Positions 807 through 60,280 of a stretch of 64,000 nucleotides of DNA are shown in pieces. The position numbers and the translations under genes are program-made. This DNA is from Alphaproteobacteria bacterium (GTDB taxonomy: Bacteria > Pseudomonadota > Alphaproteobacteria > RF32 > CAG-239): the NCBI GenBank assembly GCA_017475525.1, contig JAFVFH010000034.1, positions 4,375-68,374 on the forward strand. The letters are read 5' to 3'. Position 1 is the stretch's first letter; the number at the start of each line of letters is the position of its first letter. The notes under the pieces were generated by a model. It was not told the origin of the DNA and searched no databases. It saw only the letters and a list, made by a program, of their open reading frames with translations.

Positions 807-2210
807 CTATTTATACCGAAGCTTGAATGTGTTGCCCGTTGACTTTGAAAGCTTTGAGGCCTCCTCAACGGTGTAGATACGCTTGATATTTCGTGTCGAT
901 ACTGTTTGCTCCGGCTTAGGTGTAACAATTGGTTCAGGTTCAGGTGTTACGACTGGTTCAGGTTCCGGTTCCGGCTCGGGTTCGGGTGTCACAACCGGTT
1001 CCGGCTCGGGTTCAGGTTCAGGTGTTGGATCTGGTGTTGCAAGGGATATGTTATTTGCCAAAGCATAAGCACTACACCCCGCAATACTGTTACTTTTATC
1101 GCTGCTACATGTAATACTTTTGTCGGTGACAATATCCATGAGTGTTAAACATCCTGTCTTTGTTTGACACAAAACACCATTTTGAAACAGTTCTTCTGCT
1201 TTAGCTTCTTTGTATGCTTCTAAATTTTCTTGAATTTTAGCCAAACATGCTTCTTTTGCTCCGCAAGAGGCACTTGGTCCGTTAACCATATCTTCTCCCG
1301 AAGCGTAATTGTAGCCATTATATGTAAATACACCATCTTCACTTTTGCTGTAAGTTCTAACAGATGCGTTTGTATTTTGCTTTTTATTTTGACAATCTGT
1401 GCCTTCTAAGCAATAAATTGCAACAGCAACATCATCATGGAAGTTACTGTTAGAATCTCGATATGCTCCTATCCAATTGAAGGCCATACTAGATAATTCA
1501 GGATTTCCTCCGATAACAAGAGATATTAATCCTGCCTCGGAAAAAGTATTGGTTCCAATATATTCAACCGAATCCGGTATTGTAAGACTTCTTAAATTAG
1601 TAGCACCCATAAAAGCACTGCCTACTATATTGGTAACGGAATCAGGAATAGTCACGCTTGTTAAACTCTTACAATTATTAAAAGCATATCCACCTATTTC
1701 ACTTACTGAATCCGGAATATTCACACTTGAGATAGCTGTTCCAGCAAATGAAAAACCACCTATTGATGATACAGAATTACCAATTGTCAAATTGCTTAGC
1801 GAACTTGCGTTTTCGAACACTCGACTTCCCAATGATGTCACCGAATCAGGAATAACAGCACTTTCTAATTTATTTGCTCCGGAAAAAGCCGAAGAGCCGA
1901 TTGATGTTAGAGAGTTGGGAAGTGATAATGAGGTTACATTATTTTGGTTTTGAAAAGCATAATTACCGATAGATGTGATTCCATCTTCAATCACAATAGA
2001 ACTAATATTAGCCCTTTGCTTATACCATGGTGTATATTTATAAGTGTTATAATCATATTCAGGTAGAGCACCTGTTCCAGAAATCGTTAGAACCCCATTT
2101 TCAATATTATAGCTCCAAGAGCAGTCAGAATTGCCACAAGTTGAAGCATTCGCAATTATTGGGCGTAATATCACTGCCAATAATGCAGGTATAAGTATTT
2201 TATTTTGCAT
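807..2210 (-). CDS. secreted BspA-type leucine-rich-repeat protein, paralog 1, with (PE)n linker and conserved C-terminal tag
   Basis: ATG at 2210 preceded by GGAGG; signal peptide MQNKILIPALLAVIL; N-terminal C..C..C.W motif; repeated ..LTS(V/L)TIPDSVT.IG..AF.. units; PEPEPEP tract; C-terminus [28 protein letters not shown] shared with 3 paralogs. Confidence 0.8.
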   Translation of the reverse strand: MQNKILIPALLAVILRPIIANASTCGNSDCSWSYNIENGVLTISGTGALPEYDYNTYKYTPWYKQRANISSIVIEDGITSIGNYAFQNQNNVTSLSLPNSLTSIGSSAFSGANKLESAVIPDSVTSLGSRVFENASSLSNLTIGNSVSSIGGFSFAGTAISSVNIPDSVSEIGGYAFNNCKSLTSVTIPDSVTNIVGSAFMGATNLRSLTIPDSVEYIGTNTFSEAGLISLVIGGNPELSSMAFNWIGAYRDSNSNFHDDVAVAIYCLEGTDCQNKKQNTNASVRTYSKSEDGVFTYNGYNYASGEDMVNGPSASCGAKEACLAKIQENLEAYKEAKAEELFQNGVLCQTKTGCLTLMDIVTDKSITCSSDKSNSIAGCSAYALANNISLATPDPTPEPEPEPEPVVTPEPEPEPEPEPVVTPEPEPIVTPKPEQTVSTRNIKRIYTVEEASKLSKSTGNTFKLRYK

Positions 2211-2220
2211 GTTTTCCTCC

Positions 2221-2420
2221 ATATAATCAAACGATAAAAAAATCACTTTGAACCAAGATTCAAAGCGGGAGTTGTAAGAACTGCAAGTATTCAGTCGAAG
2301 TTATTCGCCACACAATGTGCTTATATCCTTCCCTCCCTTTCATAGGAGTTAATACTTGTCGTGTCTTACAAACACCGCAACCATTTTGGTTACATTTTTT
2401 ATTTTGCCATACCTCAATCC
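2221..2420 (-). promoter_or_regulatory. conserved structured 5' leader (copy 1 of 10) with terminator-like hairpin upstream of RBS
   Basis: mRNA-sense: UAACCAAAAUGGUUA palindrome, GGUGU..ACAC hairpin, ACUCC-loop-GGGAG hairpin, UAUAAGC, CGAAUAA, then cgctttgaa-tcttgg-ttcaaagtg hairpin (plus 2244..2267) + U7 about 24 nt before ATG. Confidence 0.5.
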
Positions 2421-2483
2421 AAAAGTCAAACAAAAAAAACCGCCTTTGAAAATCAAAAGCGGTTTACCTTTATGTTTGGAGAA

Positions 2484-2687
2484 CTACAAAATCTGAATGT
2501 CGCCGGCGGCAATGCGACCTCTGTCATCATACGGCTCATAGCTGACGCGCTGTCCGTCATTTAAGTGCCTGATGCCTTTTTCTTCTAATTTTGTGATATG
2601 CACAAAAATGTCTTTGCTTCCATCTTCCGGCTCAATAAAACCATACCCTCTTCTATAATTAAACCATTTCACAGTCCCAGTAAACAT
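2484..2687 (-). CDS. cold-shock protein CspA family
   Basis: 67 aa, GTVKWFN..RGYGFI...DIFVH motifs. Confidence 0.9.
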   Translation of the reverse strand: MFTGTVKWFNYRRGYGFIEPEDGSKDIFVHITKLEEKGIRHLNDGQRVSYEPYDDRGRIAAGDIQIL

Positions 2688-58987: not shown

Positions 58988-59111
58988 GATGCCAATTTAA
59001 CAAATTTTATATTTTTTGTCAATACATTTAAAACAAAAAAACACCCTCGCCAAAAAGCGAGGGTTTACTTACCAAGCATAAAAATTATATTTTTATCAAA
59101 GGAGAAAAAAT

Positions 59112-59312
59112 ATGAAAAAAAGAATAAAAAATTCCCCTGATTTTCACATCACGGGAATTGAAGAAGACAGATTAATAGCCGTGCAAGACGGCGGACTTGA
59201 CAACCGCCAATCCGTTAATTGCGATATGTATAATTTCGGCAATATGGAAAACCTGCCCGACAGCGACCGCGCGATGATAAGCAACAATCAAACTTGCAAA
59301 GAACATCTCTGA
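59112..59312 (+). CDS. small hypothetical protein (66 aa)
   Basis: AAAGGAG RBS 8 nt before ATG; divergent from the HExxH gene; no similarity recognised. Confidence 0.35.
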   Translation: MKKRIKNSPDFHITGIEEDRLIAVQDGGLDNRQSVNCDMYNFGNMENLPDSDRAMISNNQTCKEHL

Positions 59313-59314
59313 CG

Positions 59315-60280
59315 TTACTTGTACCTTAACTTAAAAGTATTTCCGGTTTTTTTTGAAACCTTTTCTGCTTCATCGATGGTATAAATGCGCTTTGGGATAT
59401 AGTTGCCTGAGGCTAAATCATTAAGTGAAGCATATGTTTTACCACCTGCCTTTATCTGCCCGTTTTCTATGCTGTATGGAATGACTTTCGGGGTACCTGA
59501 CAAACCCTCAAAAGAATTGCCACACGTCATACCCGCCGGACAATAAATGGTATTCAGCCCGGATCCATTAAAAGCGTAGGGGTTAATTCCTGTATAAACA
59601 CCATTTCTTTGGGTATACCCCAAAATATTCCCATTACTGTCTAAAAGCGAATCGGATATAACAATGCTTGTCAACCCTGTGGCACCCTTAAAGGCCTGCG
59701 TTCCAATTGTTTGCACACCGGTCAGGTCAACGCTTGTCAATTTCGTGGCACCCTCAAAGGCATAAGCCTTGATTGTTTGCACACCGGTCAGGTCAACGCT
59801 TGTTAAACCCGTGGCACCTGAAAAGGCAGCCGATTCAATTGTTTGCACACCGGTGAGGTCAATGCTTGTCAAACCCGTGGCACCCTGAAAGGCATCCATT
59901 CCGATTGTTTGCACACCGGTCAGGTCAATGCTTTTCAAACCCGTGGCTTTTATAAAGGCACCCGGTCCGATATCCACATTGCCGGATGTTTTAAGCGATG
60001 TAACACCTCCAGGAAAAGTTGACATAGATTTGCCACTGAAAGCCTTATTCGGCACGGTGGCGGCAGTGCTCTCCGATCCTTTTGTGCCATAAATGGTCAT
60101 TGTTTGATTGCCCTCATCACCGCTTAAAGCATAGTATGTGCCGGAAGTTCCGATTTGAACGCAATTGCTTGCACCGACTGCGGTGGCGCAATTTTCGTAT
60201 GATGATGTACCATCCGCTCTCGCCATTGTGGTAAAAGCTGTGCTAAGCATTAATACAAATATAAATTGACTTTTTCTCAT
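59315..60280 (-). CDS. secreted leucine-rich-repeat protein, paralog 4, with conserved C-terminal tag
   Basis: signal peptide MRKSQFIFVLMLSTAFTTMARA; perfect 22-aa repeats GLTSIDLTGVQTI..AF.GAT; C-terminus PKRIYTIDEAEKVSKKTGNTFKLRYK; GGAG RBS. Confidence 0.8.
   Translation of the reverse strand: MRKSQFIFVLMLSTAFTTMARADGTSSYENCATAVGASNCVQIGTSGTYYALSGDEGNQTMTIYGTKGSESTAATVPNKAFSGKSMSTFPGGVTSLKTSGNVDIGPGAFIKATGLKSIDLTGVQTIGMDAFQGATGLTSIDLTGVQTIESAAFSGATGLTSVDLTGVQTIKAYAFEGATKLTSVDLTGVQTIGTQAFKGATGLTSIVISDSLLDSNGNILGYTQRNGVYTGINPYAFNGSGLNTIYCPAGMTCGNSFEGLSGTPKVIPYSIENGQIKAGGKTYASLNDLASGNYIPKRIYTIDEAEKVSKKTGNTFKLRYK

Follow-up and report, generated by a model that had tools for sequence, protein, structure and literature searches.

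What does a nearly identical C-terminal tail do on four otherwise divergent secreted proteins encoded within 64 kb of one bacterial genome? The stretch in question (64,000 nucleotides of contig JAFVFH010000034.1 in the Alphaproteobacteria bacterium assembly GCA_017475525.1, referred to throughout as the window) carries four such genes, here W1 to W4, and an earlier note made from the DNA letters had proposed that their common hydrophilic ending might be a sorting or attachment signal. We show here that this ending, hereafter the tag, is conserved at the protein level and recurs at the free C-terminus of unrelated proteins in uncultured Alphaproteobacteria, and that a part of the genes concerned is preceded by a structured leader RNA found also before prepilin-like genes.

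Conservation, carriers and export of the tag

All four genes lie on the minus strand, and their open reading frames (ORFs), N-termini and matches to Pfam LRR_5 (PF13306; E values of 2.6e-47 to 3.8e-17, 62.8-160.3 bits against a cut-off of 27.7) agree with their initial description as proteins with a signal peptide, a Cys motif and leucine-rich repeats (LRRs). By inspection, each N-terminus is signal-peptide-like and leads into a Cys-containing cap. W1 (807..2210) encodes 467 residues from an ATG at 2210, the likely start because a GGAGG ribosome-binding site precedes it, with a second open start in the form of a GTG at 2246; its BspA-type LRR body is followed by a PE-rich linker, the tag codons (810-884) and the stop codon (807-809). 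W3 (47233..48498, 421 residues, tag codons 47236-47310) likewise has a PE-rich linker between LRR body and tail, and the linkers of these two proteins account for spurious matches to TonB, ClfB and PARP in the Pfam and NCBIfam scans. W2 (17853..18890, 345 residues, tag codons 17856-17930) combines a Cys-rich cap with an LRR body, and W4 (59315..60280, 321 residues, tag codons 59318-59392) consists of signal peptide, LRR body and tag. The AlphaFold model of W4 is an LRR solenoid (predicted local distance difference test, pLDDT, 89, and above 90 in the body; predicted template-modelling score 0.83) whose best PDB matches are TpLRR (6mlx), 4gt6, 4fs7 and PcpA (4cp6), and it resembles Treponema pallidum TpLRR as well as surface LRR proteins of Bacteroides and Faecalibacterium. 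The LRRs had been called eukaryote-like, a label that does not hold: they are of the bacterial BspA/LRR_5 type, and their nearest solved structures are bacterial surface proteins. A putative role of the LRR proteins in host interaction is plausible.

The bodies of W1-W4 differ in repeat number and sequence, as first described, and are 27-40% identical, whereas their tails share 19-22 of 26 residues, a degree of identity far beyond chance relative to that of the bodies. The shared ending reads KRIY[TS][IV][DE]EA..[VL]SK.TGNTF[KR]LRYK, and the individual tails are exactly those quoted in the earlier note; the conserved unit itself, which starts at the K of KRIY and closes with the final K, is 25 residues long in the window proteins rather than the 26 given there. 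A six-frame regular-expression scan of the window places the tail at W1-W4 only, each time directly before the stop codon. Compared over their last 26 codons, the four genes differ by 8-16 synonymous and 4-7 non-synonymous codon changes; nucleotide identity within the tags is 63-73%, and DNA similarity among the 3' ends stops at the stop codon. At the protein level, purifying selection acts on the tag, and since the differences are mostly synonymous and the similarity ends with the reading frame, gene conversion, recent duplication and an RNA-level cause are excluded.

The four genes are the only copies in the window, but what had been presented as a family of four belongs to a very large one. 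A profile built from the tail alone (A3) was run against 1.84 billion representative proteins, clustered so that no two share more than 50% identity. The clusters matched number 655 at E<=1e-3, of which 137 reach E<=1e-10, with unrelated bodies among them, so that the tag is not confined to four recent paralogues. Among the matches listed, the tail forms the extreme C-terminus in 138 of 142; the top match, P0017, was discarded as a false positive, being an unrelated repeat protein. Confirmed tags numbered 125 in a scan that took a single genome for each GTDB species, and 131 more came from metagenomes of the Joint Genome Institute (JGI); a search of viral contigs found none. The 79 loci kept all come from nine metagenome-assembled genomes (MAGs) titled Alphaproteobacteria, Rhodospirillaceae or 'uncultured proteobacterium', and several carrier record titles name rumen, yak or reindeer samples. 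With second copies within loci counted, there are at least 43 tags in the MAG RUG13121 and about 20 in RUG11221. W1-W4 are part of a large lineage-specific set in uncultured Alphaproteobacteria, the named genomes of which derive from ruminant gut samples.

The cargo is diverse. Pfam models matched to 141 representative carriers return LRR_5 for 99, RHS_repeat for 5 and MORN_2 for 2, many others being without a domain; by eye, YD-repeat proteins are numerous among the non-LRR carriers, which also comprise at least two other families. A carrier of the YD type (P0032) is modelled by AlphaFold as a sheet of beta-hairpin repeats matching teneurin, Rhs effectors and Tc toxins. Carriers of the LRR type, the YD type and a third type occur together in a single MAG (locus tags IJ870_), whose public annotation lists them only as 'hypothetical protein' or 'leucine-rich repeat domain-containing protein'. 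At least three unrelated kinds of body bear the tag, also inside single genomes. Short ORFs of 55-75 residues that consist mostly of the pre-tag motif and the tag, with no signal peptide, occur at L003 2452-2616, L031 3917-4087, L071 3887-4081 and L002 1968-2195 (P0011) and are probably what is left of family members that have decayed; P0011 is similar to the C-terminal end of two 252-residue carriers, in L034 and P0077.

Measured from the K that opens KRIY, the tag keeps a constant length, 24 or 25 residues, across 318 distinct carriers, and the overall consensus KRIYT[IV][DE]EA-x2-[VL][SA][KG]-x2/3-N-x-[FV]-x-[IL]-[RK]-Y-[KR]-COOH resolves into two subtypes, KRIYT[VI][ED]EA..[VL]SK[PK]TGNTF[KR][LI]RY[KR] and KRIYTIDEAN.VAGK.N[TS][FV].IRY[RK]. 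The KRIYT..EA half served to find the loci, and its conservation figure is partly inflated for that reason; two positions outside the search pattern, N at -8 and Y at -2, are conserved at 100% and 98-100%, respectively. Of the 318, 313 close on a basic residue (K in 183, R in 130), mean net charge is +4.2, and in the terminal seven residues hydrophobic positions (F/V, I/L, Y) alternate with basic ones. The upstream boundary is sharp at K(-25): the residues just before it vary, and may take the form of a beta-hairpin motif (...Y.S..D...GN.I.), of ...G.KG, or of PE/SG-rich spacers. Position-by-position composition reveals no hydrophobic run within the 24-25 residues. Apparent orthologues of W4 in three loci from other MAGs (L013, L023 and L038) share its N-terminus, MRKSQFIF.LML..., and bear the other tag subtype, ending in ...AGKVNSVKIRYR where W4 has ...SKKTGNTFKLRYK; within a single lineage of bodies, then, the tag subtype changes or is exchanged.

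Pfam and NCBIfam scans of W1-W4 (the latter at E<=1) find no model covering the tail. A PDB sequence search with the tail profile returned one match, an artefact due to designed repeat proteins containing TVEEA, and literature searches on the tail motif and on BspA/LRR proteins of rumen Alphaproteobacteria yielded nothing relevant. We considered and dropped a likeness of YTVEEA... to excisionase-like helix-turn-helix proteins (the tag is too short, the proteins are exported and Pfam gives no match), as well as a translation-arrest peptide acting on the downstream gene, the downstream genes being unrelated or convergent.

A crude heuristic calls a signal-peptide-like N-terminus in 219 of 245 complete carriers, those missed being mostly fragments or failures of the heuristic itself. 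Cleavage sites are of the AxA type in 213 and lipobox-like in 12, and from this predominance the carriers appear to enter the periplasm as soluble proteins lacking a lipid anchor. In the AlphaFold models of W4 and P0032 the bodies are confident and confidence declines along the tag, from pLDDT ~80 to 50 and from 63 to 45, respectively; in both, the tag forms only a short helix over (D/E)EA..VS and does not pack on the body.

The leader RNA and the prepilin-like genes

W1-W4 are alike not only at their 3' ends: about 200 nucleotides upstream of each gene are similar, with a sharp 5' boundary. Read 5' to 3', the predicted layout comprises a promoter-like site, a structured RNA of about 125 nucleotides, a terminator hairpin with U-run, a ribosome-binding site and the start codon, the conserved leader spanning about 170 nucleotides overall. 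Upstream of W1 (2231..2429, minus strand, as are the other three) a promoter-like TTGACT-17-CAAAAT with TG extension lies at 2429-2401, the match to our leader model at 2273-2395, and the terminator hairpin at 2267-2244, followed by a T-run. The W4 region (60296..60493) is organised in the same way, with TTGATT-17-CATAAT at 60493-60465, the model match at 60339-60460 and the hairpin at 60334-60312, again with a T-run. For W2 (18922..19120; model match 18962-19086) the alignment indicates a promoter-like TTTACA-17-CATACT, and for W3 (48536..48734; model match 48569-48700) promoter-like hexamers; both regions contain a terminator hairpin and T-run. A 23-mer of the leader is exact in three of the copies, for which the chance expectation is 0.

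To characterise the RNA we gathered and aligned leaders from other MAGs and derived a consensus structure with RNAalifold; among its 31 pairs, 16 show compensatory double changes. Paired cells make up 96.6%, compared with 80% in shuffled alignments and 37-53% when partners are slid; cells with double changes number 135 against 35 in shuffles, and none of 500 shuffles reached the observed covariation score. Helix P3, which was out of register in the MAFFT alignment, was tested separately against a mismatched-partner control: its sequence is hypervariable, yet 27 of 28 leaders form at least 7 contiguous pairs, through 25 different sequences, and the mean number of pairs is 8.5 with a leader's own partner and 4.7 with the partner of another leader. 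The single-sequence minimum free energy fold of the W4 leader reproduces all helices and the terminator (z = -3.8). The most conserved unpaired nucleotides (GGUGU, ACAC, GAUAUAAG, CGAAUAA, CUG...ACAGUU) map to junctions and internal loops, a placement shared with RNAs that bind ligands or proteins. Searched against the 4227 families of Rfam 15 at gathering thresholds, the window returns two tRNAs only; at E<=10 the best overlaps with the W1 leader score 11-16 bits where gathering thresholds are 33-71, and the best match in the scanned W1 stretch, 22.6 bits against a threshold of 44, falls upstream of the leader. The leader is a well-supported, uncatalogued structured element.

A covariance model of the leader (R1), searched at E<=1e-10 in the window and 160 loci, gave 49 matches, of which 43 sit 50-130 nucleotides upstream of genes ending in the tag, an association that is partly by design since the loci were chosen for holding tag genes; within the roughly 800 kb examined the leader is almost never found elsewhere. 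The other six precede truncated or regex-missed family members (3), prepilin-like genes of the window (2) and a sugar epimerase/dehydratase-like gene (1), and a T-run separates the element from the ORF in 48 of the 49. With filters off, the window contains six strong copies and a divergent one before a further prepilin-like gene. The match at the sugar gene (L009 5537-5674, 65 bits) stands before an ORF similar to NAD-dependent sugar epimerases/dehydratases (MRTILVTGGTGFLGSNL...), and the leader regulon may include genes for cell-surface polysaccharides. One leader copy, L037 3035-3140, has lost the 5' strand of P3 together with hairpin P4 and still precedes an intact tag gene, a natural variant that could be informative on the role of these helices.

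The prepilin-like genes comprise four paralogous ORFs in the window whose N-termini, as read from the sequence, resemble those of prepilins (...NGRSMVEMLGVLAIIGVLSAGALAGY or ...GRSMVEMLGVLAIIGVLSAGALAGY, with Gly at -1 and Glu at +5 ahead of a hydrophobic helix) and whose C-terminal parts are Cys-rich. Two have strong leaders, namely 31347-32012 on the minus strand (likely start MNKDSGRSMVEML... at ~31961; leader match 32022-32148, 82 bits) and 43265-43894 on the plus strand (leader match 43085-43210, 76 bits). A third, 38236-38874 on the plus strand (gene at ~38260-38874), follows the divergent copy (38080-38206, 22 bits, E ~0.002), and the fourth, 56508-57299 on the minus strand, has no leader. 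Curated pilin and pseudopilin models match these ORFs weakly, at the N-terminus and below threshold (GspG 22 bits against 88.9, GspH 13-18 against 80). As the same leader precedes both, tagged and (pseudo)pilin-like proteins appear to be co-regulated, which by analogy suggests that tagged proteins might be exported through a type II secretion or type IV pilus-like machine.

Judged from its sequence, the leader looks like a transcription attenuator, either riboswitch-like or dependent on a protein, that would govern a set of surface proteins, both tagged and pilin-like. It shares with riboswitches and other attenuating 5' leaders a promoter, a multi-helix element with conserved junctions and covarying stems, and an intrinsic terminator placed just before the ribosome-binding site, as well as the presence of many copies per genome ahead of functionally related genes. 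It departs from them in having no Rfam 15 match and in its targets, which are surface or secreted proteins rather than metabolic or transport genes.

Candidate functions of the tag

In outline the tag would act like known C-terminal localisation signals, and it fits no described class, as the earlier note had already remarked. Sortase-type signals consist of a signature motif, a transmembrane helix and a basic cluster (PMC11980579). The tripartite signals of this kind (LPXTG/sortase, PEP-CTERM/exosortase, GlyGly-CTERM/rhombosortase, MYXO-CTERM/myxosortase) resemble the tag in being short conserved modules with basic terminal residues at the extreme C-terminus of Sec-exported proteins, with dozens of diverse cargoes per genome within one lineage. 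MYXO-CTERM cargo moreover reaches the surface via the type II secretion system (PMC11980579), a parallel to the prepilin-like genes that appear co-regulated with the tag. The tag, however, has no hydrophobic helix after its motif and no invariant Cys; its hydrophilic character from end to end prevents it from being retained in the inner membrane to be processed, and the missing transmembrane helix, together with the lack of a match to any NCBIfam sorting-signal model, places it outside the sortase-type class. A signal without a transmembrane helix is known from type IX secretion (T9SS), whose C-terminal domain (CTD) leaves its cargo attached to the cell surface (PMC7468200). Found in Bacteroidota, including on BspA of Tannerella, the CTD resembles the tag as a C-terminal signal of Sec-exported surface proteins that are often BspA-type LRR proteins; it differs in being a folded beta-sandwich of ~70-100 residues restricted to that phylum, whereas the tag, 25 residues long, comes out as flexible in the models and belongs to Alphaproteobacteria, and the NCBIfam scan of W1-W4 shows no TIGR04183-type match on the tail.

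We favour, with a probability of about one half, a reading in which the tag is a post-Sec delivery or retention signal whose free C-terminus is read by a shared envelope partner, likely through strand pairing and charge contacts. This pattern of a localisation tag rests on dozens of unrelated Sec cargoes per genome that end in a fixed-length peptide under purifying selection, carried as a flexible tail on proteins with no other anchor. In such a scheme, of which surface localisation, the partner, its mode of binding and control by attenuation are the parts we infer, tag genes (all of those in the window and ~40% elsewhere) would be transcribed from their own promoter through a leader ending in an intrinsic terminator, and the carriers would be exported by the Sec pathway under signal peptides of the signal-peptidase-I type, not as lipoproteins. 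On the folded cargo the tag would stay flexible, so as to be read through its free C-terminus by the shared envelope component; its last strand, with F/V, I/L and Y alternating with basic residues, would pair with an edge strand of the partner, with charge contacts adding to the interaction, and otherwise soluble periplasmic proteins would thereby be delivered to, or held at, the cell surface.

Several observations weigh against this reading. All-against-all clustering of 1316 ORFs from 80 loci identifies no partner, peptidase or secretion family that recurs beside tag genes (79 genome loci). Of the proposed sorting or anchoring role the sequence-level expectations are all borne out (the unit is modular, strictly C-terminal and under purifying selection), but no sortase-like or secretion gene stands beside the tag in these loci. 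The sole nearby candidate, a signal-peptide-bearing Peptidase_C39-like (papain-fold) protein encoded directly upstream of W3 (48892-49704, minus strand) and weakly similar to the PA2778 and FapD C39 families, has no homologue in the other 79 genome loci and hence no conserved tie to the tag. The tag offers neither a transmembrane helix nor an invariant Cys or Gly-Gly, the features on which known sorting enzymes act, and its extreme sequence conservation would equally suit a small binding or assembly domain. The low AlphaFold confidence of the tail may stem from a shallow alignment rather than from true disorder, and the carriers are uncultured, their sub-class taxonomy and habitat being taken from record titles only. 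Finally, the leader is present on every tag gene of the window and on 28 of 69 complete tag genes of other genomes (about 40%); tag and leader are accordingly overlapping features and not obligatory partners, and the link to pilin-like genes is partial.

The conservation just mentioned bears directly on a different function, in which the tail would be an autonomous assembly or binding module, either a foldon-like oligomerisation peptide producing multivalent adhesins or a mini-domain for a glycan or host ligand. Highly conserved polar residues (KRIYT, EA, N at -8) and modular placement at the C-terminus of repeat scaffolds are what such a module would display, a monomer AlphaFold prediction would leave such a peptide unstructured, and the motif Y-A-S-L-x-D-L-x-x-G-N, which is similar and lies upstream, gives a hint that a strand-helix unit has been duplicated. 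On the other hand 25 residues are marginal for a stable fold, the PDB search gives no similar solved structure by sequence, a binding domain needs neither a fixed distance to the free C-terminus nor a K/R end, and multivalency alone would not hold on the cell carriers that have no other anchor; we consider this function fairly unlikely. The alternating residues at the end also recall outer membrane protein (OMP) beta-signals and the donor strands of chaperone-usher pilins, and a more specific form of the anchoring idea would have the tail direct its soluble cargo to the BAM or TAM assembly machineries or to a specific outer-membrane barrel, which would take up the last strand. FimA, a chaperone-usher pilin, ends in ...ATFKVQYQ, and the beta-signal follows the pattern polar-x-G-x-x-hydrophobic-x-hydrophobic; the likeness extends to a terminal amphipathic strand with alternating hydrophobic and polar positions over the last seven residues, a penultimate Tyr, a preceding Gly/Asn turn and the importance of a free carboxyl end. 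The tag nevertheless closes on a basic rather than an aromatic residue in nearly all carriers (K or R in 313 of 318), its bodies are solenoids and sheets and not barrels or Ig folds, its KRIYT..EA half has no counterpart in beta-signals, and a putative barrel of the window ends in ...LKVLF, so that the organism uses the normal signal; insertion of this kind is in our view improbable.

Chemistry at the terminal residue would offer another kind of tether. Braun's lipoprotein ends in ...YRK and is cross-linked to peptidoglycan by an L,D-transpeptidase through its C-terminal Lys, and the window tags, which end in ...RYK, and the 183 carriers with a final K invite the comparison. Such a link would call for an invariant C-terminal Lys, whereas R is the terminal residue in 130 of the 318 carriers, and the last nine residues of many type-B tags (...NTFSIRYR) lack Lys altogether; the K/R exchange points to charge and not to a cross-linking amine, and attachment to peptidoglycan would confine adhesin-like bodies to the periplasm, all of which makes a cross-link of this type very unlikely. 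Hardly any weight can be given to the tail as a one-step secretion signal of a type IV (VirB/D4-like) or type I system. Alphaproteobacterial type IV substrates do use basic C-termini, and the tag is hydrophilic, C-terminal and of net charge about +4, but Sec signal peptides with an AxA site occur in about 90% of carriers, which therefore reach the periplasm first, the Cys-rich caps imply disulfide formation there, and signals of this sort are normally poorly conserved in sequence, unlike the tag. Least credible of all is a tail left over from gene conversion or a recent duplication, or conserved at the RNA level, with no function of the protein: W1-W4 are indeed paralogues with conserved 5' and 3' ends, but the mostly synonymous divergence of the tags and the loss of similarity at the stop codon already refute it, as does the presence of the tag on unrelated bodies in many genomes.

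The delivery or retention signal that we prefer can be extended into a larger and more tentative proposal, rather less probable than not, that these diderm Alphaproteobacteria possess a new localisation pathway independent of a transmembrane helix. A dedicated envelope receptor or translocon would recognise the hydrophilic 25-residue peptide and display on the cell surface dozens of LRR and YD adhesin-like proteins, and the leader, as a new class of riboswitch or protein-dependent attenuator, would switch them together with the pilin-like proteins in response to a gut signal.

Genomic setting and significance

W1-W4 are scattered singly amid housekeeping genes (accA-like, obg, typA, SRP54, tRNA synthetases) and resistance-nodulation-division (RND) efflux operons. 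Two RND operons, at 12304-16581 on the plus strand and 32185-37945 on the minus strand, encode a membrane-fusion protein and an AcrB-type pump, one of them including an outer-membrane factor as well; a further gene, at 26319-27671 (plus strand), codes separately for an outer-membrane efflux protein. The putative barrel referred to above is the product of a 298-residue ORF at 51834-52730 (plus strand); it has no Pfam or NCBIfam match, looks like an outer-membrane beta-barrel and ends in ...GAQLKVLF, a classical terminal-Phe beta-signal. Upstream of W4 lie a 577-residue tail-fibre-like ORF (61510-63243) and a Phage Tail Collar domain protein (63518-63991), both on the minus strand, and the matching European Nucleotide Archive (ENA) scaffold (L001 1-117) continues with a weak BppU_N match; these genes may be a prophage or tailocin remnant. 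Two paralogous small ORFs on the plus strand, 17244-17837 and 25721-26194, start with ...CAFFG(H/R)RD and have no Pfam match at 1e-5. The former runs convergently to W2; ahead of this ORF lies a marginal match to the leader model (17069-17186, plus strand, 20 bits, E ~0.006), whose meaning is uncertain.

What is new here is a tag that fits no described class together with a structured leader outside Rfam, present in many copies per genome. If the leader is a riboswitch, its ligand would be the signal that controls surface adhesins and pilin-like proteins; to our knowledge few riboswitch classes besides those for cyclic di-GMP have adhesin- or pilin-type targets. The 25-residue profile provides a simple handle for listing candidate adhesins of the carrier organisms, in which by a rough estimate perhaps 2-3% of genes encode tagged proteins. 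The LPXTG, PEP-CTERM, T9SS CTD and MYXO-CTERM tags each opened a new pathway of envelope biogenesis and made the surface proteome predictable from sequence. If the tag described here is a sorting tag, its recognition would have to differ from that of sortase-like systems, since it has no membrane-spanning segment, and the same gain would follow for the poorly known uncultured Alphaproteobacteria of the gut.

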